This document shows positions 8,584 through 53,869 of a DNA stretch of 64,000 bases, piece by piece. The notes beneath the pieces were generated by a model. The model had not been told where the DNA came from, searched no databases, and was given only the letters and a program-made list of their open reading frames with translations. The translations under genes were made by a program, and so were the position numbers. Each line of letters opens with the position of its first letter. Position 1 is the stretch's first letter. The DNA comes from a virus. The stretch lies in the IMG/VR virus record IMGVR_UViG_3300043427_002233, positions 6,203 to 70,202 of that record; one strand, given 5' to 3'.

Positions 8584-9192
8584 TTAAATATATTTAAATT
8601 TTAATTCGGACAACAAACGTTTCTTCGTACCTTTATTCTTATCATTGACATGGCGCCTAAAAGATGATAAGGAAACATCCAGCTCTTCGGCAGCATCTTT
8701 CAAAGATTCATAAACAACCCAGTGTTTATTAAGTAAAACCGCAATTTTCTTACCTCGGTGGCTATGATCGAAAGCTTCACCCGGTGGAACGATCAATAGA
8801 TTCTTAAAGCTACAGTTCGTCATCTTCCGGTTACGATGATAGATTTTGGAGTTCGGAACCCACAATCTAGAGAACGTCATCGCCACTAACTTTTTTAAAG
8901 GATATCGACGGTGATCGATAACAACCGCAAGGTATTCTTCACGTTTACTTTGCTTATTACGTTTATACAACTTCGTTGGTAATCTTTTAAAAAGGCTAGC
9001 GACCGGACCATTTTCCTGAAGATCACGTTTCATATACTTCTCCACATAACCTCTGGAGTTAACATAATATAAACAGTGAGCCGTCTCTTTAAAGAGGCGA
9101 CGGTAATGTTCCCAATTCAAACGACGATGTTCCTCAAGATCCTTGATGGTATCAATCGTCATGCTGGCAATAAATTCTAATTGTTCTTTCAT
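8584..9192 (-). CDS. Degenerate HNH/NUMOD-type DNA-binding protein
   Basis: LVAMTF...IYHRNRKMTNCSFKNL resembles an HNH_3 core with altered residues; C-terminal YESLKDAAEELDVS resembles a NUMOD1 HTH. Confidence 0.55.
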   Translation of the reverse strand: MKEQLEFIASMTIDTIKDLEEHRRLNWEHYRRLFKETAHCLYYVNSRGYVEKYMKRDLQENGPVASLFKRLPTKLYKRNKQSKREEYLAVVIDHRRYPLKKLVAMTFSRLWVPNSKIYHRNRKMTNCSFKNLLIVPPGEAFDHSHRGKKIAVLLNKHWVVYESLKDAAEELDVSLSSFRRHVNDKNKGTKKRLLSELKFKYI

Positions 9193-9199
9193 CTACTTT

Positions 9200-9229
9200 A
9201 TTATAAACACAAAAGAAAACAGTTGTCAA
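9200..9229 (-). promoter_or_regulatory. Sigma-A-type promoter, leaderless start at 9192
   Basis: TTGACA-18-TATAAT; ATG 7 nt after the -10; no SD. Confidence 0.75.
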
Positions 9230-9414
9230 CTATTTGCTGACAACCGTATCGTTCCGCCAAACTCATCTTCTTTTTCATCGACTTCATAGAACCAGTTCGA
9301 CATAAACATCGCGGCAGCTTTGAGACGATGTCTCGACGCGAAGCGTCCGGCGAATTTAGTCCGACCATGTCGATCGATTTCATACAGCGAGTAGATCTTA
9401 ATCTTCTTGACCAT
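9226..9414 (-). CDS. Hypothetical protein
   Basis: AAGGAGGTGA SD upstream and TGcTATGAT extended -10. Confidence 0.6.
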   Translation of the reverse strand: MVKKIKIYSLYEIDRHGRTKFAGRFASRHRLKAAAMFMSNWFYEVDEKEDEFGGTIRLSANS

Positions 9415-9502
9415 CGGGTGCGCTCACCTCCTTGAGTCCCATCATAGCACCACCTGTGGTCAAATCGTTTTGTAAAACGCTTACATTTTCCTGAAAGCCG
9501 TT

Positions 9503-9739
9503 TCAGAAATTCATCGTCACGGTTTTCTCGAACAACGCTTTCTCTTCTGGCTTATCCCACTTGATCATCAAGTTGGTACGTAGTTGGCCATAACGAGCGG
9601 TCAGATGCGTCTCTTCATCGACAAAGTTTAAACCGCCGTAACTTCTAAATCCCGATAAAGCCTTATTCACTTCGCTAACAATATGCTCCGGCGAATGCCC
9701 AACTTGAATCAACAAGTCATCCCGAAATAAATAAAACAT
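9503..9739 (-). CDS. Hypothetical protein
   Basis: TAATG coupling to the upstream ORF. Confidence 0.65.
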   Translation of the reverse strand: MFYLFRDDLLIQVGHSPEHIVSEVNKALSGFRSYGGLNFVDEETHLTARYGQLRTNLMIKWDKPEEKALFEKTVTMNF

Positions 9740-10068
9740 TATTTTTTTACTTTCTTCTTAACTGGCTTATCTCCATCCGTATCTCCCCGGGCAACGGTCC
9801 ATACCGGTTGATCGTCTAAATGATCAAGCCCATCTTCGAGTTCTGATTTAATATCTTTCCAGGTTCTTAACCCTTCATATTCTTCTTCGATTAATTCAAA
9901 TGATTTACCTTCGAAAACAGGGTGAACGAAAGAAATAATAAAGCGAATCTCATTCGTGTTAGCAAGTTCGGCATCGGCTTCGATCTTTACTTGATAGCCA
10001 TTCTTCGTTAGATGTTGAGCGATTGAGTTGGCGGATTCCCAGCCAACGACTGAAATTTCTCCGGACAT
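9739..10068 (-). CDS. Hypothetical protein
   Basis: GGAGGA SD; operon context. Confidence 0.7.
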   Translation of the reverse strand: MSGEISVVGWESANSIAQHLTKNGYQVKIEADAELANTNEIRFIISFVHPVFEGKSFELIEEEYEGLRTWKDIKSELEDGLDHLDDQPVWTVARGDTDGDKPVKKKVKK

Positions 10069-10070
10069 AT

Positions 10071-10520
10071 TTAGTCCTCCTTATTTTCTTTATAATACTC
10101 TTCTATCGCAACGAAGTCAACCATTAAATCTTTATCTAGTTTTTGATTAAGTTCAAGAGCACATTGATCACAGTATGGCGAGATCCAACCCATGGATATT
10201 TTAGTAGCAGGTTTGCCACAATGAATACAGATATAATAACTCATACGTTCGTATTTTGAGATGACATCATAAACTTCCCTTGATGCACCATGACAATAGA
10301 ATCTTAACCCGCCAAACTTTTCTTTGACTTGAGTGATCAGCAACTCTTCACCCTTAAGTGCTGTGGCAATCTCTTCCATCATCTGTTCGCCGAAGGCAAT
10401 CCTCCAGCCACCCGGCATTCCATCTAACCAGGTTACTTTAGTCGATCGGTCATACTTACCGGTCATAAGATTCCTCAAACGAAGGAACGGATATTTTTTA
10501 AGAAGTTCTTTATTATTCAT
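10071..10520 (-). CDS. Conserved phage protein (QVKEKFGGLRFY family) with Zn-binding cysteines
   Basis: QVKEKFGGLRFY motif, CIHCG and CDQC; leaderless start 6 nt after TATAAT (10527-10532). Confidence 0.75.
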   Translation of the reverse strand: MNNKELLKKYPFLRLRNLMTGKYDRSTKVTWLDGMPGGWRIAFGEQMMEEIATALKGEELLITQVKEKFGGLRFYCHGASREVYDVISKYERMSYYICIHCGKPATKISMGWISPYCDQCALELNQKLDKDLMVDFVAIEEYYKENKED

Positions 10521-10639
10521 GGTTCTATTATACTACTTTCTGCATTAATTGTCCTTTTAAATATGCAGTAATAGGATTATTCTAATATAATAGAAAGGCA
10601 TAGTCTAACCCCTAAACCCAAAAATTCTGTGGAGCGTGC

Positions 10640-10855
10640 TAGTATATATTATTGATGTTGTTAGTACCATTTGTGATTGTGTGATGTTGTTAGTACTGTT
10701 GTTGTGTTGTGGGGGTGCCTTCCCTACCACCAAACCAAGAAATACTTCCCCCACGTACCCCCAACACTAATAGTAACACTTAACACCCCCAAAAGTACTA
10801 CCCTACCCTATATATATACCATACATATATATATATACTCTCTCTCTACTATTAT
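10640..10855. repeat. Low-complexity GT-rich/CA-rich imperfect inverted repeat and (TA)n/(CT)n tract
   Basis: GATGTTGTTAGTAC occurs twice; GTGTTGTGGGGGT pairs with ACCCCCAACAC; TATATATA and CTCTCTCT runs. Confidence 0.6.
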
Positions 10856-10879
10856 CCAACGATAATGAATTTGACAGAA

Positions 10880-11065
10880 GCCCTAGTGGCGTATGAACGT
10901 TTGGGGTTTGATCGTAAGAATTAGATCGGCCCTGTCACTAGAGCCCTATACTAAAGTTTCCCCGAGCAACCGGATGACATTGCGTGTTCAGAACCCTTAT
11001 CGGGATGTCCCCTGGTTTATCGCTCGCAAAGTGATGGTCAAGATATGGCCATGTAACAATGCGTC
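10880..11065 (+). ncRNA. Candidate structured RNA/DNA element
   Basis: GC-rich island with stems CTAGTGGC/GTCACTAG, ATCGCT/AGTGAT, TGGTCA/TGGCCA and CATTG/CAATG; G-U pairs favour the + strand. Confidence 0.35.
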
Positions 11066-11066
11066 T

Positions 11067-11163
11067 CCCCCTGGTCCCCTGATCCCCTACCCTACTTATT
11101 CCCCTTACCCCCCCCTACCCCCTAGAATAGGCTACCCCTATTCCCCTAGTCCCCCCCACCCCC
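11067..11163 (-). repeat. G-quadruplex-competent tract (11 G-runs of 3-8 nt on the minus strand)
   Basis: Plus strand shows C5,C4,C4,C3,C4,C8,C5,C4,C4,C7,C5 with short linkers. Confidence 0.75.
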
Positions 11164-11219
11164 TAGTATCATTTGGTACTTTTGAGTGTTACGACTAGTG
11201 TGCAGACGTTATGTCTCAC

Positions 11220-11249
11220 GTGTGTGTGGTGTGTGTGTGGTGTGTGAGG
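11220..11249 (+). repeat. (TG)n-type simple repeat
   Basis: GTGTGTGTGGTGTGTGTGTGGTGTGTGAGG. Confidence 0.8.
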
Positions 11250-11369
11250 TCTGCTAGTATCTTTAGTTTGATACTTTATGGTGGATCTCATGGAATTGGG
11301 TTAACTCTTTCTATTATATTATCTAGATCATTATGTATGTTTATAATATAGTTTACAGAAAAGTTTTTC

Positions 11370-11700
11370 TACAGCCCTATTTTTAGGGTAACTCTGGGGT
11401 AAAGCAAGCGTACACTCCATAACTCATTAAATCCATAGTGGGTTATGGTGTGTATGTTTACAGTTATGTCGAGTTATACTTTGGCTAATCTACTTTTGCC
11501 ATTTTAACTTTGACTTAATGGAAACGTACACTGCAGAACTACAGTATATACTGTGTGTTTTATGTAGTGTTTCTTTATTGTTACATTACTTTTAAACTGA
11601 AGTGTATATTCCTATTTATATAGGACGCTGGGAAAAAGTTTTCCAATGGGGTTGAGTGCTTACGCCTCAACTTTATTGGTGAGCTTTAAGCTCAAGAAAG
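11370..11700 (+). ncRNA. Highly structured early leader or ncRNA (serial hairpins)
   Basis: Stems include GCGTACAC-CCATAACTCA/TGGGTTATGG-GTGTATGT, CACTGCA/TGTAGTG, TCCTAT/ATAGGA, CCAATGGGGTTGAG/CTCAACTTTATTGG and TGAGC/GCTCA; TATAAT at 11342-11347. Confidence 0.5.
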
Positions 11701-11710
11701 GGGAATCTAA

Positions 11711-11953
11711 ATGAATACTGAATTAGTTTCAAAGTCATTCAAATTTGAAAACGGTCTTCGCGCTGTTCTTTATGTCGAAGATCATTTTATAAGTTTTGAT
11801 GGCTATGTTCCTGTTGGTTATGGTTGGGCAGGATTATCTTTACTAGGTCTAAAGAGTGAAGTTATTCCTACTTTGATTGAATTAATTAAATCTTTACCAA
11901 GCGATACAACTTACGAACAACTTCAATCTGAAATGAATAAAGTTAATAAATAA
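11711..11953 (+). CDS. Hypothetical early protein
   Basis: AGAAAGGGG SD; first gene of the plus-strand block. Confidence 0.75.
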   Translation: MNTELVSKSFKFENGLRAVLYVEDHFISFDGYVPVGYGWAGLSLLGLKSEVIPTLIELIKSLPSDTTYEQLQSEMNKVNK

Positions 11954-12054
11954 CTTTGTGAAGTGCATTAGCAATAGTGCACTTTGCTGAGGTATTTAAA
12001 CCTCTAGCTGGTTACTCAATGTTAACTTGACCAGCCATAAATCAAGGAGGATTT

Positions 12055-12273
12055 ATGAAAAAGATTATTGTCTTTGACGCTAAGGGAAAGGTTGTTAAAA
12101 CCAAGTACCTGTTTAAGAGTATCACTACTGGTACTCTTAAATCTTTTACAGCATCCTTACCTCAATGGTGGGCTGCTTACTACATACCTTACAAAAACGT
12201 AAGGATTTACTATACTAGATGGAAAGGTTTAGAACCGTACTTGTTTGTGCGTGATTCATATAAAAAAATATGA
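12055..12273 (+). CDS. Hypothetical basic early protein
   Basis: AAGGAGG SD. Confidence 0.75.
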   Translation: MKKIIVFDAKGKVVKTKYLFKSITTGTLKSFTASLPQWWAAYYIPYKNVRIYYTRWKGLEPYLFVRDSYKKI

Positions 12274-12428
12274 AGATACCTCTTTACCTTTCAAAAAAAG
12301 GCTATGGTTGTTTTAAGTTAGGATCTTATTGGTATCCTACACAAAACAATATTTCTTTTAGTACTTTAAAATTTAAAACCAAAATTAGTTTACTTGGTTT
12401 CTTAGATTTTCATTCTCAAAACTCATAA
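12270..12428 (+). CDS. Small hypothetical protein (52 aa, MKIPLYLSKK...)
   Basis: ATGA overlap with the upstream stop; below the ORF-track size cutoff. Confidence 0.5.
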   Translation: MKIPLYLSKKGYGCFKLGSYWYPTQNNISFSTLKFKTKISLLGFLDFHSQNS

Positions 12429-12438
12429 ATATTTTGGC

Positions 12439-12550
12439 TAGTGTTGCAATAACCATGCGAAAGCTAAAGACACTACGTGACATTTGTGACGATAGACTAA
12501 CGGTGATAGTTAGTCGAGGGCTTTGAAAGGAACCCTGGGTTGCAACACCC
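12439..12550 (+). ncRNA. Candidate structured RNA motif in the early intergenic region
   Basis: GACTAAC/GTTAGTC hairpin, GC-GAAA-GC, AGGG/CCCT, GGGT-TGCAAC-ACCC; competing GTGTTGCAA/TTGCAACAC and TAGTGTT/GACACTA stems. Confidence 0.5.
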
Positions 12551-12561
12551 GAATAATTTGT

Positions 12562-12819
12562 ATGGGTAACTCCAACAAAGTAACGACGTTGATCCGTTAC
12601 ACTAAGAAGATCAACATTAGTGATGCCGATAAATCTTTATCGCGCATGCGTCAAGAAGCCAAGGTACGTGATTACCTTTGGTCTGAAGGAGGTTGTTTTT
12701 TAAAGATTTGGAATGGCTTTGAATATGTTGAACGCATGTTTGACATCAAAGAACTTTCTAAAGTCCGTGCTGCTTACTATTACCAAGACACGAAGACTCT
12801 CGTGCTTGAAATCTTTTAA
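12562..12819 (+). CDS. Hypothetical early protein
   Basis: ORF track frame; start moved to the first ATG after the structured element. Confidence 0.6.
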   Translation: MGNSNKVTTLIRYTKKINISDADKSLSRMRQEAKVRDYLWSEGGCFLKIWNGFEYVERMFDIKELSKVRAAYYYQDTKTLVLEIF

Positions 12820-12835
12820 GGAGGATTTATCTACC

Positions 12836-13384
12836 ATGAATAAACAATCATTTAACCTTGCTCTTCAATTATATACTTCTTTTTTAGAAATTAAAGAACC
12901 TCTTACGAAAGCTTTTCATGATCAATTTGGTTTTCGTAAAGACTTTGATTTAACACCTTACTATAATCGTTATGTACAGATTTCTTATTCACATAAACAT
13001 AAACATTACACTTTTATTTTTTTCCCTTTTAGAATTTTTACTCCTTCAATTATTGACACAACTAATCAGTTTACTTCTTTTCAAGCCTCTGAAGTTTATG
13101 CTTTTGAAAAGAACGATAACGTTGATTTTTGTTGTATTACACCTTCTGGTTATCAAATGGTTAATACTCGTTCTCTAAATTTTCCTTATTTTAATTTTAA
13201 AGATAATTCTTATGCTTTTCACACTCATACTTTTTATGATAAGGTTTCTCATGATTCCTTGAAGTTTCTTTCTACACTTCTTGAATCAATCAATGAAAAT
13301 TCCATCACCGATTGGACCGGTTCTTTTAAATACGTTCCTTTTTTAAAAAATGTTGTTGCTTCAGCTTTGTTAATGCTTTCATAA
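12836..13384 (+). CDS. Hypothetical early protein
   Basis: AAGGAGG SD before MNKQSF. Confidence 0.75.
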   Translation: MNKQSFNLALQLYTSFLEIKEPLTKAFHDQFGFRKDFDLTPYYNRYVQISYSHKHKHYTFIFFPFRIFTPSIIDTTNQFTSFQASEVYAFEKNDNVDFCCITPSGYQMVNTRSLNFPYFNFKDNSYAFHTHTFYDKVSHDSLKFLSTLLESINENSITDWTGSFKYVPFLKNVVASALLMLS

Positions 13385-13399
13385 GGAGGTTTTATTATT

Positions 13400-13549
13400 A
13401 TGAAACAAATCATACTTAATCATCTGGCTGTACTTATGGATAAACTTATTGGAAACTTGGCTACTGACGCAAGTGCTGATAAGAAAGATGCCTACGGAGT
13501 AGTTCTTCTTGAACTTCACCGGCTTGTTAAGGTTATTAAATCATTATGA
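13400..13549 (+). CDS. Small hypothetical protein (49 aa)
   Basis: AAGGAGGT SD; MKQIILNHLAVL... Confidence 0.65.
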   Translation: MKQIILNHLAVLMDKLIGNLATDASADKKDAYGVVLLELHRLVKVIKSL

Positions 13550-13695
13550 TTTATTTTTACCTCTGTATTGTATTAAGTGTGTTGTTATTTTTTAGTGCCG
13601 TTTACTACATTATATCGCTACGGTTCTATAAAAGAACTTTGGCTAGATATATAAATTTTTTCATCAGAATAGGAGGTATATCCGATGAAAATTAA
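13546..13695 (+). CDS. Small membrane protein (49 aa)
   Basis: ATGA coupling; hydrophobic N-half MIYFYLCIVLSVLLFFSAVYYIISL followed by basic residues. Confidence 0.5.
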   Translation: MIYFYLCIVLSVLLFFSAVYYIISLRFYKRTLARYINFFIRIGGISDEN

Positions 13696-13837
13696 ATCCC
13701 GTGGCAACTTAGTCTCATTGTTATCTGACGACAACGAATACGAATACTATGACTCTATCCGAATCAACAAGGTATCTTTGAAAGGAGACCGCCATGAGAA
13801 ACTTGCTCGACAAGAACTACGTAATACCGCCAAATAA
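13685..13837 (+). CDS. Small hypothetical protein (50 aa)
   Basis: AGGAGGT SD; MKIKSRGNLV...; overlaps the next gene by 44 bp. Confidence 0.5.
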   Translation: MKIKSRGNLVSLLSDDNEYEYYDSIRINKVSLKGDRHEKLARQELRNTAK

Positions 13838-14549
13838 GTGGACTAAAGAAATGTTTGACTCTATTGTTTCATTTCTTTATACACGAGATGAAAACATTTT
13901 TCACTTGGATCCTAATGGTAAACTTATCATTACTAATCCTGAAGCTGTCTTTGACAAAATGAGATCTCTATTACCACATCCTCGTATTGTTGAGATTTAT
14001 CTTGACCTAGCTACATTACGTAATCTTTTTTCTACTAAGTTTAAGATTAATCTTTCTGTTCTTGTTGATACGATTAGTGATAGATACTCCTCTTTCTTTA
14101 AGTCTGAAATGAAAGCACCTGCTTCCATTGACATGACTACCTCAACTATTATCTTCCGACAAGACAGTATTTTTAAAGCTATCCAAGAAAGATTTTTAGC
14201 TTTTATTGCTGTCAATTTTTCCGACCACTACATTTACCGAAGCGATGTTAGAGATGAATTAATTAACGTTATGTTATGTTTACATCTTTACCTTCTTGAT
14301 CATGAGTTAGGACATTTCTTTTTTAGTCCTAACCACGAACAAAAAGAAAAGATTAAAAGACAATTTATCACAAACAATCCAAAATATGCCGGTCTTGATG
14401 ATGGTACTATCCATCGTATGCTTAACTTTCTTGAAGACATGTATATTGAAGACCGTTTCAAATCTATTATTTATCCAAACGATCCAAAGATTCACCAAGT
14501 TTATGATCTTGGACGATTTTTATTAGGAAGGACAGGATATGCCAAATAA
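13794..14549 (+). CDS. Zincin-like HExxH metallopeptidase domain (N-terminal module of CobT/VWA-type proteins)
   Basis: DHELGH plus downstream NFLEDMYIE; GAAAGGAG SD. Confidence 0.7.
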   Translation: MRNLLDKNYVIPPNKWTKEMFDSIVSFLYTRDENIFHLDPNGKLIITNPEAVFDKMRSLLPHPRIVEIYLDLATLRNLFSTKFKINLSVLVDTISDRYSSFFKSEMKAPASIDMTTSTIIFRQDSIFKAIQERFLAFIAVNFSDHYIYRSDVRDELINVMLCLHLYLLDHELGHFFFSPNHEQKEKIKRQFITNNPKYAGLDDGTIHRMLNFLEDMYIEDRFKSIIYPNDPKIHQVYDLGRFLLGRTGYAK

Positions 14550-15774
14550 AACTACTGACTTTGGCGATGTTGAATCCGTATTGTATAAATTATTAAACAC
14601 ACGATATGTTTCTTATTCACCTGACTTAACATCATTGTTTTCCAATGTTCTTAATGAACACGACCCTGTTGCTCGTGGTGTGAAATTTCTTGAAGACATT
14701 GCTACACGCATTGACTTTTCTGAAATTGAAAATCCACCTCAACCTGATGAACCAAATAAACAAACAGTTGATGGTACTGATGGTGAAGGTGATGAAGATG
14801 GTGCCAACATGTTATCTTCTGCTCTTGAAGACTTAGCTCGTGGTAGAAATGCCGCGCCTAACTTTGGAACCATTAATGAAGAACATTCTCTACACTCATT
14901 TCAAACACTTAGTGTCTCTCCAAAACATCTTGAGTTTTATCACTCTATCACAGGATCGTTTACCGATTCCTGGCAACAATATTTACGGAGAGATGATGGA
15001 AGAATGCTTTCATTACGCAGTGGTAAGTTTTATAATCGACATGCTTATAAAACTGAACTAACTCCTGCTGTGTTTTACAAAGATGTTAATGTTATTCGTG
15101 AATCTGATCTGAAAGTATTTCTTTTTATTGACACCAGTGGTAGTACTTATACTGACATGGGTGGTAGAAAGAAAGACCTTGATCTTTCCTATTATGACAC
15201 TGCTGACATTGGCATGGTCTTGAAAGACAAGGACGAACGAAGTGAGGAATCTATATATTCTCTACATAAAACACAGAACATTTCCTCAAGTTATTATATG
15301 ACTACACTTGCACTTGCAATGGGTCATGTACTTAAACTTGGTAATTGTTCTCTCGACTTTTCTTATTTTGATAATCATAATAAGAACATAAAAGACATTT
15401 CCTATGTCGAAAAAGACTTAGAGAAATTATTTTATGCTAATAAACTTTTAGGCGGTGGTGGTACAGACCTTACCGAAAGTTTTAAGTATCTTGATTTTTG
15501 TATTCCTAATAGCAACAATCGTGACAAGTTGATACTTGTTCTAACTGATGGTGCTATTTCCAGTGAAAAACTTTTACAACAAAAGTTAACAAGCTTTGCA
15601 ACGGACTACAATGTTCGTGCTTTGTTTGTTGGTATTGGCGCTCGAATGCCTCAGAGTTTTGCATCAATTCCAAAATATGATGCACTATGTTATGTAGATG
15701 CGAACGACTTAGTCGCTCGTTTTGCTGGTGATTTTAGCCAGTTTTTACTACACAAATTCTTCTTGGAAGAATAG
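14539..15774 (+). CDS. VWA-domain protein (MoxR partner)
   Basis: MIDAS motifs FIDTSGS, GGGTD and ILVLTDG; acidic linker. Confidence 0.85.
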   Translation: MPNKTTDFGDVESVLYKLLNTRYVSYSPDLTSLFSNVLNEHDPVARGVKFLEDIATRIDFSEIENPPQPDEPNKQTVDGTDGEGDEDGANMLSSALEDLARGRNAAPNFGTINEEHSLHSFQTLSVSPKHLEFYHSITGSFTDSWQQYLRRDDGRMLSLRSGKFYNRHAYKTELTPAVFYKDVNVIRESDLKVFLFIDTSGSTYTDMGGRKKDLDLSYYDTADIGMVLKDKDERSEESIYSLHKTQNISSSYYMTTLALAMGHVLKLGNCSLDFSYFDNHNKNIKDISYVEKDLEKLFYANKLLGGGGTDLTESFKYLDFCIPNSNNRDKLILVLTDGAISSEKLLQQKLTSFATDYNVRALFVGIGARMPQSFASIPKYDALCYVDANDLVARFAGDFSQFLLHKFFLEE

Positions 15775-15793
15775 AATGAAAGGAGGAAAAACC

Positions 15794-16021
15794 ATGACAA
15801 TTATTAAAGCAGTTAAAGTCGTGTTAACTGATGCTCAAAAATCATTGATTAATGAACGCTATGGCCGTATGGCCTGGCCTATTATTAAAACAATTGAAAG
15901 AGTTGTTGATGCTGAACCATCACGTTCTCTTTCTGAGCTCGTAGAACATGCCATGATATATTTGGATGACCATTTTGGCGGACCAAATCTAGATGGCGAT
16001 GCTGTAAACAACATAGAATAA
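15794..16021 (+). CDS. Hypothetical protein
   Basis: GAAAGGAGG SD before MTIIK. Confidence 0.7.
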   Translation: MTIIKAVKVVLTDAQKSLINERYGRMAWPIIKTIERVVDAEPSRSLSELVEHAMIYLDDHFGGPNLDGDAVNNIE

Positions 16022-16036
16022 AGGAGGAAAATTTCT

Positions 16037-16546
16037 ATGGCAAAATTAAATTCTGTATCTTTTCTTTTCAATCTACAAAAGCGTATTGACTTGGCTCGTA
16101 AAGACTGGCCATCATCAATGACTTTTAGTTTTTTACCTACTAAAGCAGTTATAAAAAATATTGGTTATGAATCAAGTTCTTTTTCTTTTATTAAAGTAAC
16201 TGATATTATTAACCGAATTCAAAAGGATCCCATTACTGAGAAAGAAGCCTTTGCTTCTGAACTTACTTCTATGTTAGATCAAATCATTTTATCTATGGAA
16301 TCTTTATCAGTAAAAATTTTATCTGGTAAAGATGAATCAGATCTAAAATCTAAACGAAACTTCACTGATTTAATTATTGAATCACAAGAAGCTAGTGGTC
16401 CACACTTTGATGGACTACCTCTCCCACATCTCATGTTTGACTTCACAACCTTTTTAGTTATTAATGTTAATAACAACAAAGTTATCTTAGGTATTACTGT
16501 TGATGGTTCTAACAATATATCATCAGCCTATTTTATAGTTCAATAA
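16037..16546 (+). CDS. Hypothetical protein
   Basis: AAGGAGG SD. Confidence 0.75.
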   Translation: MAKLNSVSFLFNLQKRIDLARKDWPSSMTFSFLPTKAVIKNIGYESSSFSFIKVTDIINRIQKDPITEKEAFASELTSMLDQIILSMESLSVKILSGKDESDLKSKRNFTDLIIESQEASGPHFDGLPLPHLMFDFTTFLVINVNNNKVILGITVDGSNNISSAYFIVQ

Positions 16547-16559
16547 GGAGGAACTTAAC

Positions 16560-18092
16560 ATGGCAAAACAAACTGTCTATACTAGATTATTTTTATCAAC
16601 TGATAAAACTCGCTTAGTTTTATTAGCTGAGTATCCTAATTTACCATTCGTTAAACTATTTGTTGATGTTCATTCATCAGTTGCTCCGTTCAAAATTAGT
16701 ATTGCAAGCGATGGCTCTGAGTTCGATCAAGCTATTGCTTCTTTGTTTGAACCTTCTTTACAAGTTTTCTTTAGTAAAGTATTTGATATTGAACCTAATA
16801 AAATTGACGTTGCAAAAATTCCTTTATCAACTCTTACTGCTTTACCAGTTGCTACTGAATTGACTTTTGATTTTATTAAAATATTTGATTCGTATTCTTT
16901 ACGCAATTATGCATACAAACCAATGCCAAAGACAAAAAAGTATTTGGACAATCTATCTGTTGGTGATTATGTAAAGAAACATTTTGGTTATGAAATCGTT
17001 GATAAGACTTTTACATTACCTGATGTACTTACAGTTAATCCAATGAACCAAGATGCTTGGGAACACCCTGTCATTAAGGCAAATCCTGATAAGTTTAGAC
17101 CTAAAGTTGACAAAGATTTGGTTGAAGTAATTAAATCTGAATCAAAAGAATTTGAATATATTATGAATCACCTTAACAAGACTAATCCTATTTCACCAAA
17201 CAAGAACTATTTACTTGTTGGTAAACCTGCTGTTGGTAAATCAGAAACTGTTAGGGCAATTGCACACATTCTTAATTTACCTTACGCAGAATTTACTATT
17301 ACTAAGACTACTGAATTTGCTGATACCTTCGGTAAGATATCTGCAACCATGCCTAATGATTCCAGTAAGTCTTGGGCTTTCTTTGAATCTGACTTGAAAG
17401 CTGTTGCTGAAGCTGGTGGTATTGTCAACTTAGAAGAAGCAACTGCAATGTTAGAATCAAATCAAATTGAAGGTAACAATGTTATCTCTGGTTTAAATCG
17501 TTACTGCTATGTAGCCGGACATAAAGTTATGGTACATGAGAAAACTATTTTCTTTGGTACCGCTAACGCTGGAATGGGTGGGCTTTCTAAAATGCAACCT
17601 GCCTTCCTATCAAGATGGGAAGAAATTAATTTTGAAGAACCATCTACAAAGAGTCTTTATAAATACTACAATAAGAAGTATGCTAAATCTCTTGATCCTA
17701 TCGTTATCAAAGCTCTCGTCGATCTCACAATTGGTATTGGTGATGTTCTTTCCAACACCGAACAATTTAAGAGAGAAGATCCATTCTGGGGTCCAGCACC
17801 ACGTATTACTAATCGTAATCGTAGCAACCTTATTTATTTATTATTACTTAATCCTACTCTTTCTGTTTCTTCTGTAGTTGAAATGTTTATTCGCAATATG
17901 ATTCACACGAATTATTTTACTACGGAAGTTGTTGACAAAGTTTTAGTTGACTGCGAAAATGTTATTGGTATTTATAACCATACTGTAAAAGAATTTTATC
18001 ATCCAACTCCTTTGCTTACTAGCTTAGGAATCGTTGCAAGAAATTCTACTGGAACTAAATCCAAGAAAGATGAATATGAGGTTGAATTATAA
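16560..18092 (+). CDS. MoxR/CbbQ/CobS-like AAA+ ATPase
   Basis: Walker A GKPAVGKS, Walker B IVNLEE, sensor GTAN, PAFLSRW arginine finger. Confidence 0.85.
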   Translation: MAKQTVYTRLFLSTDKTRLVLLAEYPNLPFVKLFVDVHSSVAPFKISIASDGSEFDQAIASLFEPSLQVFFSKVFDIEPNKIDVAKIPLSTLTALPVATELTFDFIKIFDSYSLRNYAYKPMPKTKKYLDNLSVGDYVKKHFGYEIVDKTFTLPDVLTVNPMNQDAWEHPVIKANPDKFRPKVDKDLVEVIKSESKEFEYIMNHLNKTNPISPNKNYLLVGKPAVGKSETVRAIAHILNLPYAEFTITKTTEFADTFGKISATMPNDSSKSWAFFESDLKAVAEAGGIVNLEEATAMLESNQIEGNNVISGLNRYCYVAGHKVMVHEKTIFFGTANAGMGGLSKMQPAFLSRWEEINFEEPSTKSLYKYYNKKYAKSLDPIVIKALVDLTIGIGDVLSNTEQFKREDPFWGPAPRITNRNRSNLIYLLLLNPTLSVSSVVEMFIRNMIHTNYFTTEVVDKVLVDCENVIGIYNHTVKEFYHPTPLLTSLGIVARNSTGTKSKKDEYEVEL

Positions 18093-18466
18093 TGATTAAT
18101 CAAAACTTACCTGCCGTTGTTTACAACAAAGATACTTTTAAAGAATTTACTATCATTAATACACCACTTCGTGTGTATAAGATAGAAGATTATGCTTTTG
18201 TTTATTTTGGTCGACGCTTTCTGACAGAACAAGAACACTTAGTACTTGTTCCATTCGGTATTGATGCTGCTATCCCTCCCTATATGGGGGGTGTCGGCTA
18301 TTTACTTGTCAAAGATTCTACATCTATTAGAACTTTGACTTGTAAGCAATGCCAAACGCCATCCGAATCATTAGAAAGTTTTTATATACATGAAGATAAC
18401 TCTGATTACTTATGTCCACATTGTAATGTAGTTAGAATTCCATGGGAGGAAATAAAAAACAAATGA
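18092..18466 (+). CDS. Hypothetical protein with C-terminal Zn ribbon
   Basis: CKQC...CPHC. Confidence 0.7.
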   Translation: MINQNLPAVVYNKDTFKEFTIINTPLRVYKIEDYAFVYFGRRFLTEQEHLVLVPFGIDAAIPPYMGGVGYLLVKDSTSIRTLTCKQCQTPSESLESFYIHEDNSDYLCPHCNVVRIPWEEIKNK

Positions 18467-18915
18467 TATTATTTCAATACAACGGACAAGATCATTATCT
18501 TTATCCTATTGTTTCTGCTCGTTATGCATTTGATACAAGAAGTGTTTACGTTAATCAAACCTATAATGACACTGCATTTTTAAGGATGAAGTTGAACTTT
18601 CCGCACCGCTTAATTGCTGTGCAACATTCTGACTATGTTATACTTCGTAATTTTTATTATGAATTGTGTAACACATTGTTCTCTCCTACTATTACTTATC
18701 TCAAGGATGCAAGTAAAAATCTTGCTTATTTTAGAGTCACTGCTCCAAAAGAAAAAGGAGGATTATCAATGGAGCTTGACGCTATTGTCCTTGTTGAAAA
18801 GAATTTTGACTACACACAAAGCTATGCTGCAGGTGTTGTGATCAAAAGATTTTTACGGTTTACTAAAGACGGTCTAAAGTTTTTAGAAACCTACTACGGT
18901 TCATTACCATTTTAA
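18463..18915 (+). CDS. Hypothetical protein
   Basis: ATGA coupling; operon context. Confidence 0.7.
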   Translation: MILFQYNGQDHYLYPIVSARYAFDTRSVYVNQTYNDTAFLRMKLNFPHRLIAVQHSDYVILRNFYYELCNTLFSPTITYLKDASKNLAYFRVTAPKEKGGLSMELDAIVLVEKNFDYTQSYAAGVVIKRFLRFTKDGLKFLETYYGSLPF

Positions 18916-18927
18916 GGAGGTAACAAA

Positions 18928-19308
18928 ATGAACAAACAAATTATTGGTGTTTTGGCCCAACGTACTTCTGAAGGTTTATCTCTTCAAAAGTATATCCTTC
19001 AATACGAAAGTTACAAATCTTTATATCCTGTAATTAATTGTGATCTATTTGATATTCCAACTCGTTTCATTAAAGGGAAACCTTTTGACATTTATCTAGA
19101 TGATGAAGGTTTATTGAAAGGAAAACCTGTTGTCGCTGCATCTGATGATGGTCTTGAGGTACTTGTAGGAAATTTATTTTTCTGCAAGCACAACGATGAT
19201 GGAGGCATCGAATCTCTTACTGATGAAGAAGTCAATCTTATATTGTCATCTATTGAAGAAGACTTTGAAGGTAGTCGTGTTGTTTCTTATGGATTTAAGG
19301 AGGAATAA
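18928..19308 (+). CDS. DUF3846-like protein
   Basis: DIYLDDEGLL...LVGNLFF...SLTDEE pattern. Confidence 0.65.
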   Translation: MNKQIIGVLAQRTSEGLSLQKYILQYESYKSLYPVINCDLFDIPTRFIKGKPFDIYLDDEGLLKGKPVVAASDDGLEVLVGNLFFCKHNDDGGIESLTDEEVNLILSSIEEDFEGSRVVSYGFKEE

Positions 19309-19310
19309 TC

Positions 19311-19628
19311 ATGAGAAAATTTTCTGCTAATCCTAAGTTTACTGGACGTGAAGTTTTGATTACCATTGCTGTTATGTATAACAACAAATGGGACGATATG
19401 TACAAACATATAAAAGAAAAACGTTTGATTAGTGATGAACAATTTCTTCACGCAATGACTATGTACTCTGGTAAAGTCATGACTATTATTGATCCTGACT
19501 ATCCTGAAATACTTAAGTCTTCTTTTAAGCCACCTTTTGTTATCTTCTTTGATCGTAAAGATCAATTAAAAAATCTCGACTTCTCAAGTCCCGAAATTAT
19601 TTCTAATTTCTTAAAAGGAGGAAATTAA
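19311..19628 (+). CDS. Truncated DprA N-terminal homolog
   Basis: REVLITIAVMYNNKWDDMY...TIIDPDYPEILKSSFKPPFVIFF resembles the short N-terminus of DprA; the Rossmann core is absent. Confidence 0.65.
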   Translation: MRKFSANPKFTGREVLITIAVMYNNKWDDMYKHIKEKRLISDEQFLHAMTMYSGKVMTIIDPDYPEILKSSFKPPFVIFFDRKDQLKNLDFSSPEIISNFLKGGN

Positions 19629-19629
19629 A

Positions 19630-19989
19630 ATGAAAAAGAAAATTACAAAGTCTAATTTAAATGAAGGTGTTTATGTTAAGATGATTGCTGGCAAAGATGA
19701 AATACTTAACTTACGTCTTAATGATTTTGAAAATGGTGAACAAGTTAACGAAACTCTTAATGGTATGATTAAGATTATCTCTGCTGCCATCATTGGTAGT
19801 GCTTTGACAATCTTATCTGCTAATGAAATTACTGCATCATCTGAAACCTTACCCGCTCTTGCTGAAAAACTTATCTCAAAGTTTAATGAAGACTCTAAAG
19901 AATTTATGATGACTTCTATTAATGAAACTATGAATAAGCTTAGAAAAAAGAAAGATGAAACTCCATCTGACTTTAATGGTAAGGCCTAA
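19630..19989 (+). CDS. Hypothetical protein
   Basis: AAAGGAGG SD. Confidence 0.7.
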   Translation: MKKKITKSNLNEGVYVKMIAGKDEILNLRLNDFENGEQVNETLNGMIKIISAAIIGSALTILSANEITASSETLPALAEKLISKFNEDSKEFMMTSINETMNKLRKKKDETPSDFNGKA

Positions 19990-19990
19990 T

Positions 19991-20305
19991 ATGAAACTAC
20001 GTACACTTATTGCGTTTCTTGAAACGCTACCACAAGATTCTACTGTTCATATTTGCGGCACCGATAGATTCTTTATGTATTTTGGTAAAGAAAATAAAGA
20101 AACATTTATTACTTTTGATATTGATGAACTCGACGTTGAAGATTTTAAATCTAATGGTGTCAAAGGATTAAAGTTCTTTGACTCTATTACTGTCTCAACA
20201 CAATACGAAGCTGAATTAAAACGTAAGGCTAATTCAAATGAAGCTCTTGAAGTTTTTAAATCTGCTAAGGCTTTAGAGGATCTTAACATATGGAAAAAAA
20301 AATAA
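19991..20305 (+). CDS. Hypothetical protein
   Basis: MKLRTLIAFLETLPQD, a start pattern common in small phage proteins. Confidence 0.65.
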   Translation: MKLRTLIAFLETLPQDSTVHICGTDRFFMYFGKENKETFITFDIDELDVEDFKSNGVKGLKFFDSITVSTQYEAELKRKANSNEALEVFKSAKALEDLNIWKKK

Positions 20306-20457
20306 ATTACCCTACTTTAGTTGCCGACCTTATCCAAGAATTAGTTGACTTTGGTTATAACGTCAATGACATTATCTTTATACTTACTAACAATGGTATG
20401 ACTGATAAACAAATTAAAGAATGGTATGGTTTACCATTTACAATTGGAGGCAAATAA
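20290..20457 (+). CDS. Small hypothetical protein (55 aa)
   Basis: AGAGGA SD; MEKKINYPTLVADLIQEL...; last early gene. Confidence 0.6.
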   Translation: MEKKINYPTLVADLIQELVDFGYNVNDIIFILTNNGMTDKQIKEWYGLPFTIGGK

Positions 20458-20476
20458 TATCGCCTCTAATCTTTTT
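20444..20476 (+). terminator. Intrinsic terminator at the early/GroEL convergence
   Basis: TTGGAGGC/GCCTCTAA stem followed by TCTTTTTT. Confidence 0.6.
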
Positions 20477-21968
20477 TAATCAGTATGTAGGCACGTAGGT
20501 AGTTTGCTGCGATTGAACTTGCGTTCGTTAAGGATGTTTCGATTGATGCATAGCTATCTACGATGCCTGCTTTAGTTAAGTTTACTTCTTTCTTACTAAC
20601 TACATCTATCGCTATACTATTTTGTAACCCAGCTTCCTTAGTAATCTTTAACCCAGCATTGGATAAAATGGTTAACAACGGTTTACGTAAAACATTACTG
20701 AGCTCAGGTACCTCGAACGATACGTTCCATAATGCCTTACCCGCTCCGATTGTAATGCCTTTTTTAGTAGCCGTTTTTACCGCTCCGATTGCGTCGTCTA
20801 GCTTCAACTTAATCGTCATGTATTCTGTGACGGTTGGGGCATATATCTTAATCTTTGTTACGCCCGACTCTAGATTGGCTAGCCTACGTGTGATCATGTT
20901 GGCACGGTTCATTCCAGTGGTGTAAGCTTGTTCTTCAAGTTCTTTCTTGTAACTCTTGATACGTTGTAACAAAGCTTTAGCATTGGGTGCTTCTGCCGTA
21001 ATCGTCGTTTTCATTTGTTCAATGATAATAGACTTAGCCTTGCCTAACGAATCAAATACAAAGTCAGCTCCACTAACTGCATCCTGTGCTGTTCCGCCAG
21101 TATACGCAGCTACGTCTAAGAAGATCTCTTCTTGGGATACGTCGTTGATGAAGATGATTTGGAATTTGAATTTGTTTTCTGTCAAGGTATCTAATAATAA
21201 CTTTAAAGACTCCGGATTAAATTTGTTTGATACGATGAAGACGAACGGGTGATCGATCTGGTCTTGAGGGATAGAAGCGAAAAACTTCTGGGTATCCAGC
21301 TGTGTGAAGATGCCTTCCTTTAGGACGGCGATGAATGGGTTTTGGTATACGGTCTTCTCACCTTCGTTGCATAACGCTCTGAGTGACTCTGACATGTAAC
21401 CAGCATCTAACGTCATGCCAGATGTGAACTCCACATAAGATTCTTCTTTGATCCGCTCGTGCTCCGTGACTACGTTCATTGTCCCGCCAGACTTGCGATA
21501 TGCTTCAGCTACTAATGCGCCGATGGCCGGGATCTTTGTAACGATCGTTGATAGATTAGCTACCTGATCAATCGTAAGTTTGATGCGATACTTCTTGAGT
21601 TCGTCTTTTGCTTTCGCAACTAGCTCAAGTAGTTTGTCTGCAGCAACCTGCGGGTGTAACCCACGTTTGATCCAAGCTAAGCCTTGCTTGTATAACTCAT
21701 TCGTTAGTAAGACTGTTAAGGTCGTACCATCAAATGCTGTCTTCTCTGTATTGTTGGCAGCTTCAATCATGGAGATGGCTACCATCTTTTCAAATCCCTC
21801 GAAGTCGAATGCTTGCTTGGCCACGGTAACACCGTCGTCAGTTAAGATGGGCCGGCTGAATTCATCTTGAATGACAGCCATCCGACCCTTTGCTCCCATC
21901 GTTGGGACTACCATGTCTGCGATCTTCTGGAAAGTATCCTTGATGATCTTGATATCTGATGTCTTCAT
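20466..21968 (-). CDS. groEL: Phage-encoded group I chaperonin (GroEL/Cpn60-like)
   Basis: TMGAKGR, ILTDDGVTVAK, FDGTT, DDAIGAVK, GITIGAG and AGIVD motifs; no GGM tail. Confidence 0.9.
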   Translation of the reverse strand: MKTSDIKIIKDTFQKIADMVVPTMGAKGRMAVIQDEFSRPILTDDGVTVAKQAFDFEGFEKMVAISMIEAANNTEKTAFDGTTLTVLLTNELYKQGLAWIKRGLHPQVAADKLLELVAKAKDELKKYRIKLTIDQVANLSTIVTKIPAIGALVAEAYRKSGGTMNVVTEHERIKEESYVEFTSGMTLDAGYMSESLRALCNEGEKTVYQNPFIAVLKEGIFTQLDTQKFFASIPQDQIDHPFVFIVSNKFNPESLKLLLDTLTENKFKFQIIFINDVSQEEIFLDVAAYTGGTAQDAVSGADFVFDSLGKAKSIIIEQMKTTITAEAPNAKALLQRIKSYKKELEEQAYTTGMNRANMITRRLANLESGVTKIKIYAPTVTEYMTIKLKLDDAIGAVKTATKKGITIGAGKALWNVSFEVPELSNVLRKPLLTILSNAGLKITKEAGLQNSIAIDVVSKKEVNLTKAGIVDSYASIETSLTNASSIAANYLRAYILIKKD

Positions 21969-22816
21969 TTAGCTGGGCCTCCATATAAATAGGTCGTTTT
22001 CTTTTTAGCACCTTTCTTTGGCATTGGCGCAGCTAACTTACGTCTTGGTTGTTTTTTCATAGGCTTTTTAGCCTCCTTTGTTTTTGGATTATAATCGTCG
22101 TATATAAACCTGTCGTAGGCATCACCATACTCTTTTATGATTTCTTCTGATAACTTCTCTACCTTCTTGGTATTGTATAAGAAGTTGTCTGAGTCTTCGG
22201 TCATCCACTTGTCGTACTGTTCACAACTGTACTCTTGTGTGTTGATTTTCCATGGCTTGCCTTTGTACTCTGATGTAACAAAGCTGGGCTCGTACCATTT
22301 GATGATCCGATTGTTAGGCTGGAGTGCAAACAGTCCATTGTCTAACATGATCAGGTGGTGAGACTTGTGCTCTTGGAAATCCTCGGCTAATGTTAGATCG
22401 ATACCGGTGTTCTCATTGCTACCCCATTGAAGGGTTAACATGTAAGTACCACCTAGTGTATCGCCGTTCTTCATTAACACATCTACATTTGCATTATAGA
22501 CGTAGTTTAACCCAACCAGGGTAAATACCTTAGAGAAGCAATCCCATAGCTGTAATGAGTGGAAAGGATATGTTTTCCATACTTCCTCTGTATCAGGTAG
22601 TTTCCAGCAGATAGCGGAGATGGGAAGCTTGTCTCTCATCATGCCATGTTCTGTAAGAACTTGGAATAGTGCAGCCGATCCTTCGTTGCAGCGGATAGAA
22701 ATTAGAATCGCCTTTGTATATTTGCCTACGTATTCTTGGTTATCGGGATCATCAAAGAAGAATCCATCTCTAACCCAGACTTTAATAGGCGGTAAGCTGG
22801 CTTCAATAAACGCCAT
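21965..22816 (-). CDS. Conserved phage protein of unknown function
   Basis: LPPIKVWVR...DKLPISA...QLWDCFS...EHKSHH...LDNG..ALQPNNRI, a motif set I recognise from diverse phages; basic C-terminal tail. Confidence 0.75.
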   Translation of the reverse strand: MAFIEASLPPIKVWVRDGFFFDDPDNQEYVGKYTKAILISIRCNEGSAALFQVLTEHGMMRDKLPISAICWKLPDTEEVWKTYPFHSLQLWDCFSKVFTLVGLNYVYNANVDVLMKNGDTLGGTYMLTLQWGSNENTGIDLTLAEDFQEHKSHHLIMLDNGLFALQPNNRIIKWYEPSFVTSEYKGKPWKINTQEYSCEQYDKWMTEDSDNFLYNTKKVEKLSEEIIKEYGDAYDRFIYDDYNPKTKEAKKPMKKQPRRKLAAPMPKKGAKKKTTYLYGGPAK

Positions 22817-22837
22817 ACACTTTACCTCCTATTGATT

Positions 22838-22875
22838 AGTATAACAAAAAAGCATACTGATTGCAACAGTACGCT
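22838..22875 (-). promoter_or_regulatory. Overlapping terminator and sigma-A promoter
   Basis: Stem AGCGTACTG/CAGTATGCT plus U-tract; TTGCAA in the loop, 17 nt, then TGtTATACT. Confidence 0.7.
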
Positions 22876-22884
22876 TCATAATTT

Positions 22885-23061
22885 TTACATCTTCTTTAAT
22901 GTCATGGCTAGCCTGGCTCTTTGGCCTAGCTTGCCTGGTTTTTTAGCGGCTTCTTTAAGTTTAGCCGCGGGGATCTTCTCACCCTTCTTGACTCCAAGTG
23001 ACTTGCGAAGCGCGCCTGGTTTCTTGATTGCGGATTGAATCCATTTCTTTTCTGCCATCAT
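22885..23061 (-). CDS. Small highly basic phage protein (58 aa)
   Basis: MMAEKKWIQSAIKKPGALRKSLGVKKGEKIPAAKLKEAAKKPGKLGQRARLAMTLKKM; ATGA-coupled; missed by the ORF track. Confidence 0.8.
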   Translation of the reverse strand: MMAEKKWIQSAIKKPGALRKSLGVKKGEKIPAAKLKEAAKKPGKLGQRARLAMTLKKM

Positions 23062-23291: not shown

Positions 23292-23293
23292 AC

Positions 23294-24345: not shown

Positions 24346-24348
24346 AAG

Positions 24349-24967: not shown

Positions 24968-24970
24968 TTT

Positions 24971-26980: not shown

Positions 26981-26981
26981 A

Positions 26982-27578: not shown

Positions 27579-27579
27579 T

Positions 27580-52780: not shown

Positions 52781-52782
52781 GA

Positions 52783-53484
52783 TTATTCCTCTACGTGAAC
52801 AATAGAATCTTCTTCAAAAAACTCATCTTCATAAGCTAACTCGTGTGTAATATCTTCTACATAATATTTATAGTTGTTAAGATACATCTGGATTTTTTCA
52901 GTGTCCTTAACAAATCTAGAGTAATAAAAATAGGCAGAATAAAACACTAGTGCATCTTCAAATTCTTCACGAATATCGATGTCAACGTTTTCTAGGTTCT
53001 GTTCATCTGAGAGGGATTCGGTAATTGTTGGAGCAATTAACTTGGAATAATAACCAAACTTAAAGTTTACAATAGCACCTAATTCTAGATCATATTCGAT
53101 GATAAGACGATCGTCTTTGATGTAAAAGATTGCACGATTACTACCAATCCAACTTCTAAATCTATTCATATACCAGTTCTTCTGAACATTTGGGTTACTC
53201 AAAGAATATCGCTTTGCTACAATACCATATTGTGGCAAGAAGATCTTAGTATAAAGAACTTTCCTAACTTGTGAAACAGGAATCTTAATTTCAATATAAC
53301 CAACTTCATTAACAACGACATCAGTTTGAGCAATATTATCGAACGTAATTTCTTTAAACAAACGATATCCTCTTGAGGTTAAATCAGCCATACAGTTAGA
53401 TATGGCGGTTTGTAAAGACCCAATGGTAAGAATGTCTAAACCAGTTGTTTCGATAACTCTTTCGTATAATCGTTTTAGTTTCAT
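52783..53484 (-). CDS. Probable head-tail adaptor
   Basis: DIREEFEDALVFYSAY motif; position after capsid genes. Confidence 0.65.
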   Translation of the reverse strand: MKLKRLYERVIETTGLDILTIGSLQTAISNCMADLTSRGYRLFKEITFDNIAQTDVVVNEVGYIEIKIPVSQVRKVLYTKIFLPQYGIVAKRYSLSNPNVQKNWYMNRFRSWIGSNRAIFYIKDDRLIIEYDLELGAIVNFKFGYYSKLIAPTITESLSDEQNLENVDIDIREEFEDALVFYSAYFYYSRFVKDTEKIQMYLNNYKYYVEDITHELAYEDEFFEEDSIVHVEE

Positions 53485-53855
53485 AGTTTAGTTCCTAGTG
53501 TCCTTTCGACTACGTTCATTGCAGTATTATCCTGTAGTCTCTTTTCTTCAGATTGTTCTAACCGATAGTTTGTTTTTTCTCTTCGATCTTGAACCTCTTT
53601 TATAAATTGTTTAAGGTTATTGGCTTTATAATCATTTATTAAAAAACCATTAACCATTTCTGGTTCAAGGCTAACGTTAAAGGAAATGTTATTAATCTTG
53701 TAGTTTTCTACTGAATGTACCTCATGTGTTCCTTTTAGAACATTATAAGCTACAAAGATATCTCCCTTAGACAATTTTAACATACGAGTTGAAATATTGT
53801 GAGCATTAGCAAATCGTAGTTCTGGCTGAAACCGTATGACATCTAAATAATTCAT
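53481..53855 (-). CDS. Hypothetical virion-module protein, leaderless
   Basis: MNYLD start 6 nt after TGtTATAAT (53862-53867). Confidence 0.65.
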   Translation of the reverse strand: MNYLDVIRFQPELRFANAHNISTRMLKLSKGDIFVAYNVLKGTHEVHSVENYKINNISFNVSLEPEMVNGFLINDYKANNLKQFIKEVQDRREKTNYRLEQSEEKRLQDNTAMNVVERTLGTKL

Positions 53856-53869
53856 ATACATATTATAAC

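Follow-up and report, generated by a model that had tools for sequence, protein, structure and literature searches.

The 64,000-nucleotide (nt) stretch of virus record IMGVR_UViG_3300043427_002233 analysed here (the window, covering 64,000 of the 70,202 bases of the record, with a G+C content of ~35%) raises the question of how translation begins at five phage genes in which a TATAAT box lies only 6–7 nt before the ATG. A preliminary description of this DNA had pointed out this arrangement, without a Shine–Dalgarno (SD) sequence, at 9192 (−), 10520 (−), 27813 (−), 27860 (+) and 53855 (−), together with strong GGAGG-type SDs elsewhere, and had proposed that leaderless initiation at these operon-leading genes forms a translational switch with an anti-SD small RNA. 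All five sites read as it stated, and the strong SDs elsewhere are likewise borne out. Our comparisons suggest that the five genes are probably promoter-proximal cistrons read from leaderless messages through a host-type promoter; layout, statistics and relatives all point to this part of the proposal, whereas the switch fares less well, a relative that encodes the RNA being SD-led. Four of the genes (10520, 27813, 27860 and 53855) do head transcription units, whereas that at 9192 forms a single-gene unit.

The promoter-like sequence of the 9192 gene (TTGACA-18-TATAAT, 9200–9229, − strand) matches the consensus at 12 of 12 positions, and its −10 box ends 7 nt (aaagtag) before the ATG; its −35 box lies inside the 3′ arm of a terminator hairpin (9247–9219, −17.1 kcal/mol). 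The gene itself (8584–9192, −; 202 amino acids, aa) lacks an SD (duplex energy −1.6 kcal/mol) and is located directly upstream of a giant gene. At 10520, AGGACA-17-TATAAT (10527–10555, −; 10 of 12 matches) ends 6 nt (agaacc) before the start of a 149-aa gene without SD (10071–10520, −), which heads a unit of four genes (149, 109, 78 and 62 aa). Two further starts share one 46-nt gap, in which two back-to-back promoters overlap (27820–27852): on the minus strand TGT-TATAAT (box at 27825–27820) is followed by tgattt and ATG 27813, and on the plus strand TGT-TATAAT (box at 27847–27852) by gttttat and ATG 27860. Each matches the promoter consensus at 10 of 12 positions, and its −35-like ATAACA overlaps the −10 box of the other. 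With 46 nt between the two ATGs there is no room for leaders, and such close overlap probably makes simultaneous occupancy of both promoters by polymerase impossible. The minus-strand start opens a 77-aa gene (27580–27813) heading a unit that runs to 20466, and the plus-strand start a 246-aa gene (27860–28600) heading a unit of two genes; neither has an SD. The fifth site lies 3′ of the capsid gene, where a terminator hairpin is combined with a TGT-TATAAT box (53862–53905, −; −19.8 kcal/mol, z −6.6): the U-run of the terminator passes into TGTTATAAT, and the box (53867–53862) ends 6 nt (atgtat) before ATG 53855. The 124-aa gene that starts there (53481–53855, −; no SD) is the first in the tail/structural unit downstream of the capsid gene.

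Taken together, the promoter scan scores of the five sites are 12, 10, 10, 10 and 10 of 12, with a TG extension at three; terminators lie directly 5′ of two promoters (9192 and 53855), and the first T of the −10 box is at −12 (N6 spacer) for three starts and at −13 (N7) for two. An SD is missing from the first cistron only of each unit, the downstream genes having SDs or overlapping the preceding stop, with gaps between genes of −4 to +2 nt. In the proposed mechanism, a host-type (sigma-70/sigma-A) promoter would place its −10 box 6–7 nt before the ATG, transcription would start at the A of the AUG (or one base earlier at the N7 sites), and ribosomes would initiate on the 5′-terminal AUG of a message with neither 5′ leader nor SD. 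On read-through RNA the same ATG would be internal and without SD, so that the first cistron would need the transcript of its own promoter and would be translated solely from it.

The lack of SDs was scored from the strongest duplex that the 20 nt before a start can form with a CCUCC-type anti-SD 10-mer. The five starts gave duplex energies of −1.6, −1.6, −1.6, +1.0 and +1.0 kcal/mol, as against −8 to −15 kcal/mol for most other genes, in which GGAGG lies 5–10 nt before the ATG; 50 of the 76 genes delivered by a crude gene caller scored −6 or better. GGAGG occurs 47 times, 29 of them 3–13 nt before the start of an open reading frame (ORF). An SD would not fit into a spacer of 6–7 nt.

TATAAT occurs 104 times on both strands. 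TATAAT-N3-10-ATG is found 24 times (both strands, 70,202 bp), ten times with a spacer of N6-7, and five of these ten are the starts discussed here, which open 77–246 codons; the remaining five open just 2, 17, 19, 41 and 55 codons. Chance was assessed with 73 curated starts by locating exact TATAAT within 70 nt upstream and comparing with dinucleotide shuffles of the same regions. The distances from the end of the box to the start were 6, 6, 6, 7, 7, 14, 21, 23, 25, 26 and 32 nt; five fall at 6–7 nt, compared with a mean of 0.15 and a maximum of 3 in shuffles, and none of 2000 shuffles reached five. The distances thus form two groups, 6–7 nt without SD and 21–32 nt with SD, except for one TATAAT 14 nt before 24714. 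A near-consensus promoter was recognised before 11 protein genes, five of them leaderless by layout and six SD-led (8523, by eye; 22816, 33045, 37366, 43107 and 58748).

The same layout recurs in close relatives of the window's phage (G000). Four of the five genes have an orthologue in G001, a 62-kb relative whose proteins are 65–79% identical, and all four orthologues keep the −10 box (at N6, N7, N6 and N6) and lack an SD. The G001 orthologue of the 9192 gene reads TTGACG-18-TATAAT-N6-ATG, with an N-terminus different from that in G000, and that of the 77-aa gene at 27813 reads TGA-TATACT-N6-ATG; the other two read TGA-TATACT-N7-ATG and, after a terminator, TGT-TATAAT-N6-ATG. In L031, a 10.9-kb metagenome contig with a primase 90% identical to that of G000, the layout is kept in both of the genes covered (the 27813 orthologue reads TGa-TATAAT-N6-ATG), and early codons differ from those of G000 mostly at third positions. 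The layout is therefore retained at six of six orthologous starts in the two relatives, and the spacer is 6–7 nt in all 11 instances over the three genomes, although its letters vary. Alignment backs the placement of the starts at 27860, where the N-termini of five homologues align at the ATG, at 53855 and at 27813, and for 9192 indirectly through the same layout in G001. Two of these starts appear elsewhere in ORF lists, at 27836 (TTG) and 53861 (ATG), whereas the alignments with relatives favour 27860 and 53855; ORF-based start calls can evidently err where a promoter abuts the true ATG.

More distant relatives use short SD-bearing leaders instead. G002 and G003 (capsid 53–56% identical) and the outgroup G005 (capsid 46% identical), the latter the single further relative added by a capsid alignment search of viral contigs, all retain the terminator and a TG-extended −10 box 3′ of the capsid gene; between box and ATG they carry a short leader that contains an SD. 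In an alignment of this region that took in G000, G001, G002 and G003, all four genomes agree in the terminator U-run and in TGTTATAAT; G002 and G003 have a block of 14 nt that includes GAGGTG, and exactly those 14 nt are missing from G000 and G001. G005 has TGA-TATAAT followed by 25 nt with AGGAG up to the ATG. Across relatives the −10 box at 53855 thus adjoins the terminator rather than the start codon, which argues that it is a promoter. The 246-aa gene of G002 and G003 is SD-led and lies inside an operon, its N-terminus aligning with ATG 27860, and the chaperonin-side unit of G003 is headed by a weak homologue of the 77-aa gene (27% identity, E 8e-4) with TGc-TATAAT, 18 nt containing AAGGTGA, and ATG. 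SD-led counterparts are therefore found for three units, that at 53855 differing by the single 14-nt block. Starts without SD and with a −10-like box at 6–7 nt number five in G000, four in G001 and none in G002 or G003; the count for G000 comes from curated starts, as an automatic whole-genome start scan flagged only 27813 there (its rule moved 9192 and 10520 to weak internal SDs and took upstream ATGs for 27860 and 53855).

Because the box stays with the terminator at 53855 and the outgroup is SD-led, the leaderless state looks like a derived trait of the G000/L031/G001 lineage. Since the same promoter drives a short SD-bearing leader in the distant relatives, this lineage has probably lost that leader. 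The chief interest of the locus lies in the evolutionary contrast between SD-led and leaderless starts that follow one and the same promoter: a conserved promoter with either a 14-nt SD leader or a leaderless start makes a natural pair for comparing modes of initiation.

The small RNA on which the proposed switch depends would be encoded at 28845–28995 (−), in the 3′ flank of the primase gene, between it and the 27860 unit. A predicted promoter (TTGACT-16-TGT-TATAAT, 28995–28968; 11 of 12 matches) would give a transcript of ~117 nt with two CCUCCUUUC motifs, ending in a hairpin and U-run predicted to act as a terminator. With its flanks, CCUCCUUUC resembles the 3′ tail of 16S ribosomal RNA (rRNA). 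The predicted fold has −44.4 kcal/mol (z −5.1) and leaves the first CCUCCUUUC unpaired between hairpins; no Rfam family matched the RNA. Syntenic copies are located in L031 (3660–3800, +), L001 (2178–2290, −) and G002 (9080–9195, +). L031 has two motifs, G001 one (CACCUCCUUUCU) and G002 one (CACCUCCUUUUUU), with CACCUCCUUUU unpaired in the G002 copy; in G003 the motif is degenerate (ACUCUCC), and G005 has UUCUCCUUA. The first CCUCCUU(U) motif is unpaired in the minimum free energy folds of G000, L031, G001 and G002, and the hairpin sequences change. Judged by this pattern, the small RNA is real as a conserved element, and as G002 has a motif-bearing RNA without leaderless starts, the RNA is older than the leaderless state. 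A 600-nt non-coding region of G003 (29850–30460, −) contains CACCUCCUUA and CCUCCUGAU motifs, antisense to no gene start; G003 may carry an anti-SD-like RNA outside the syntenic locus.

According to the switch idea, the exposed CCUCCUUUC would mask the SDs of host and early phage messages, and leaderless cistrons would escape, shifting translation toward them. We consider this unlikely, although several observations fit it. The RNA has its own predicted promoter and terminator and folds well with the first motif unpaired, and unpaired CCUCCUU is kept in L031, G001 and G002 while the hairpins vary. The five starts have no complementarity to the RNA. Every genome with leaderless starts has a perfect motif (five such starts in G000, four in G001, both covered genes in L031), and G003 with its degenerate motif has none; given the tight packing of the units (−4 to +2 nt), ribosomes could conceivably reinitiate downstream of a leaderless first gene. 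The proposed co-occurrence of RNA and leaderless starts in relatives thus holds for G000, G001 and L031 but fails in G002, which has a motif-bearing RNA and no leaderless starts, both orthologous genes there being SD-led. The preliminary description had itself cautioned that the capsid, scaffold and giant genes use SDs; the capsid, scaffold-position and giant genes, and also the portal gene and the downstream cistrons, indeed keep strong ones. As the late genes are SD-led, a general SD blocker would hit the phage itself, and as the downstream cistrons are SD-led, immunity would cover five proteins and not operons. All the genomes compared are related, so that the co-occurrence amounts to roughly one evolutionary event, and its nested pattern gives the switch weak support. 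To our knowledge, small RNAs with C-rich seeds are target-specific and do not act globally, which weighs against the switch.

A still bolder reading is that this lineage reprogrammes translation, with a highly expressed copy of the 16S rRNA tail soaking up host and early SDs, genes that have shed their leaders loading ribosomes at a 5′-terminal AUG, and downstream genes being served by reinitiation; we regard this as somewhat more doubtful again. If it were true, two features would fit a wider focus on host protein synthesis, namely the phage chaperonin and an element of G001 resembling transfer-messenger RNA (tmRNA). The latter is an 88-nt element with its own TATAAT between two leaderless promoters of the G001-derived L005 (1057–1144, −). 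It gave a sub-threshold tmRNA match (35.4 bits versus a gathering score of 47, E 2.4e-11), and by eye its 3′ end resembles a transfer RNA (tRNA) T-arm and acceptor stem ending in CCA; ARAGORN made no call on it. The window lacks this element, and its two promoters overlap. Whatever the role of the small RNA, a conserved transcript with an exposed anti-SD-like motif makes SD masking and leaderless escape testable.

A different objection concerns the starts themselves: the boxes could be real promoters while the genes are mainly translated from read-through RNA, by coupling or another SD-independent route, or from a later internal start. The genes at 9192 and 53855 (not that at 10520) lie downstream of same-strand genes, so read-through is possible, and coupling would suit the tightly packed operons of phages; weak SDs precede candidate later starts, GTG 9045 (−7.0 kcal/mol) in the 9192 ORF and ATG 10466 (−5.6 kcal/mol) in the 10520 ORF. 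However, terminators precede both 9192 and 53855, the divergent genes at 27813 and 27860 have nothing upstream on their own strands, and the N-termini of relatives align from the first ATG. Moreover, the 6–7 nt are kept in all 11 instances, a constancy not required of a promoter that has nothing to do with the start codon. Read-through or a later start therefore appears improbable. Chance in AT-rich DNA (~35% G+C, 104 copies of TATAAT, five of the ten N6-7 cases not at gene starts) or miscalled start codons would be a very improbable explanation for a layout that none of 2000 shuffles produced five times, that is kept at six of six orthologous starts and that is accompanied by a clean 14-nt indel downstream of the capsid gene.

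Leaderless initiation at the five genes thus remains the preferred reading, against which several points nevertheless weigh. The 5′ ends of the transcripts are deduced from the DNA, and leaderless translation in the host is assumed. With 7-nt spacers at two sites, a 1-nt leader is as likely there as none. The consensus promoter scan was overall not enriched (66 sites versus 64.4 expected from shuffles), and taken alone it is therefore no evidence. In-frame ATGs occur just upstream at 27851 and 53861 and are excluded by the comparison with relatives alone. G001 lacks an orthologue of the 10520 gene, and tblastn found none in G002 or G003; with the layout alone behind it, this gene is the least supported of the five.

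Leaderless initiation itself is known, and in phages it has rarely been documented beyond lambda cI. The cI mRNA transcribed from PRM is the classic leaderless message of a phage. Similar to it, the messages considered here are predicted to begin at the AUG and to be translated without an SD; different from cI, which encodes the repressor of the lysis–lysogeny decision, the five genes encode a probable HNH endonuclease, a possible small terminase, the product of a post-capsid gene and two proteins of unassigned function. The cI message is named as leaderless in PMC9031893. Among other phages, a phiKZ transcript map records no leaderless transcripts (PMC8244752), and a paper on AR9 describes phage transcripts as often leaderless (PMC5312081).

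In bacteria, an in silico survey defines leaderless (TA-led) genes by TANNNT ~12 nt before the start (Zheng et al., 2011, PMC3160421); the Firmicutes in which it reports this signature are chiefly Lactococcus/Streptococcus, Oenococcus/Leuconostoc and Mycoplasma. For Lactococcus cremoris, a further study reports ~13% leaderless mRNAs and a bimodal distribution of leader lengths with none of 4–14 nt (PMC10986495). The phage genes resemble TA-led genes in having a −10-like TANNNT 12–13 nt before the ATG, no SD and the first place in a unit, and as in low-G+C Gram-positives (Lactococcus/Streptococcus, Mycoplasma) they stand beside a majority with strong SDs. The −10-to-ATG distances of the phage, like the leaders of L. 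cremoris, form two groups, with the 5′ ends of the phage messages placed from the DNA. They differ from the bacterial cases in belonging to an uncultured phage, in their high share (five of 11 genes with a recognisable promoter), in having SD-led counterparts in phage relatives at three units, and in representing a derived state at 53855.

The stress-ribosome model of MazF is reportedly disputed. It was put forward for Escherichia coli and couples a 'stress ribosome' to a leaderless regulon (PMC5001579). The switch idea resembles it in removing SD/anti-SD pairing to the benefit of leaderless messages; it differs in that an RNA would mask the SDs and leaders would be absent by design, whereas MazF would cut the 16S rRNA tail and cleave leaders. 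Small RNAs of the RoxS/RsaE type in low-G+C Gram-positives have unpaired C-rich seeds that pair with SD regions. The candidate RNA is like them in having its own predicted promoter and terminator, an unpaired pyrimidine-rich motif complementary to GGAGG and flanked by hairpins, and a motif that is kept while the stems vary; unlike them, it is phage-encoded, has no Rfam match and carries the longer CCUCCUUUC instead of a CCC seed. In the open-access literature we found no description of such a phage RNA together with leaderless genes, and the term 'leaderless' was not found in the accessible portion of a review of phage small RNAs (PMC12197685).

The products of the five genes were compared with protein families. 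The 202-aa protein (9192) matched phrog_959 (E 1.1e-5) and HNH_3 clusters of the Atlas, with nothing significant in Pfam, and is probably a free-standing HNH endonuclease; terminator, promoter and leaderless ORF together would form a self-contained cassette. For the 246-aa protein (27860), which the preliminary description had labelled TerS, the leads are weak and concordant: phrog_51 at E 0.006, Terminase_2 in 25–44% of Atlas cluster members, and small terminases as the best Foldseek rows, all with E above 1 and none at E 0.001 or better. The structure model behind that comparison is helical and of low confidence (predicted local distance difference test score, pLDDT, 54.8), and Pfam gave no match; these leads weakly suggest a small terminase. 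The 149-, 77- and 124-aa proteins showed no significant family match; the PHROG families that they match weakly have no assigned function. Two genes of the unit that begins with the leaderless 77-aa gene, both within 20466–24967 (−), encode chaperonin-like products, one similar to GroEL (500 aa, phrog_5725, E 1e-67) and the other to GroES (86 aa, Cpn10, E 8.5e-5). The divergent −10 boxes in 27814–27859 form an inverted repeat around a central CAATTG, and this segment may act as an operator or decide whether the chaperonin-side unit or that of the 246-aa gene is transcribed.

The ends of the virus record overlap by 157 bases, 156 of them identical, indicating that it is circular or terminally redundant. 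The window encodes a large terminase, a portal-like protein, tail-fibre proteins and a primase, and further Sak4-like, PD-(D/E)XK, GroEL-like and GroES-like proteins; no integrase or lysogeny module was seen among the family matches of its proteins. There are no tRNA genes in the window and no Rfam family at the gathering score, nor any at E 0.1 in 10400–13800. Against 50,697 cultured phage records, neither megablast of 20 kb nor tblastn of the capsid protein gave a match. Uncultured relatives are many, with 327 capsid homologues found. The primase is at most 28% identical to those of cultured phages, the best being in Paenibacillus, Bacillus, Staphylococcus, Mycoplasmopsis and Listeria phages, which hints weakly, and no more than that, at a host akin to low-G+C Gram-positives; alignment of the primase with 185,579 species genomes found no prophage relatives, and the host is therefore not assigned. 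Near-identical DNA is present in freshwater metagenome runs from several studies, the runs listed for 26500–29500 being DNA only. Contigs from four DNA runs, compared with 9100–29050, show no gaps over 27103–28182 and 10090–10647.

The giant gene (1–8523, −) and a '1188-aa ORF' (60356–64000, −) are one frame across the genome ends. After removal of the 157-base overlap the joined ORF has 6,076 codons, from ATG 8523 to a stop at 60356 that overlaps the ATG of the large terminase; the parts tested against Pfam and PHROGs gave no match. A host with genetic code 4 (Mollicutes type) was considered and rejected: the 6,076-codon frame contains no table-11 stop, hence no TGA, and so gives no sign of TGA being read as sense.

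Two minor observations concern other parts of the window. At 58622–58658 (−), TTCACT-17-TG-TATAAT ends 7 nt before an internal in-frame ATG (58622) of a 97-aa gene (58455–58748); a leaderless short form of 55 aa is conceivable, or the match arose by chance. In the presumed early region (10521–11710 and 12429–13684) there are ORF-free stretches of 156, 512, 284 and 300 nt, one of which holds a C/A-rich tract near 10650–10720 (−).

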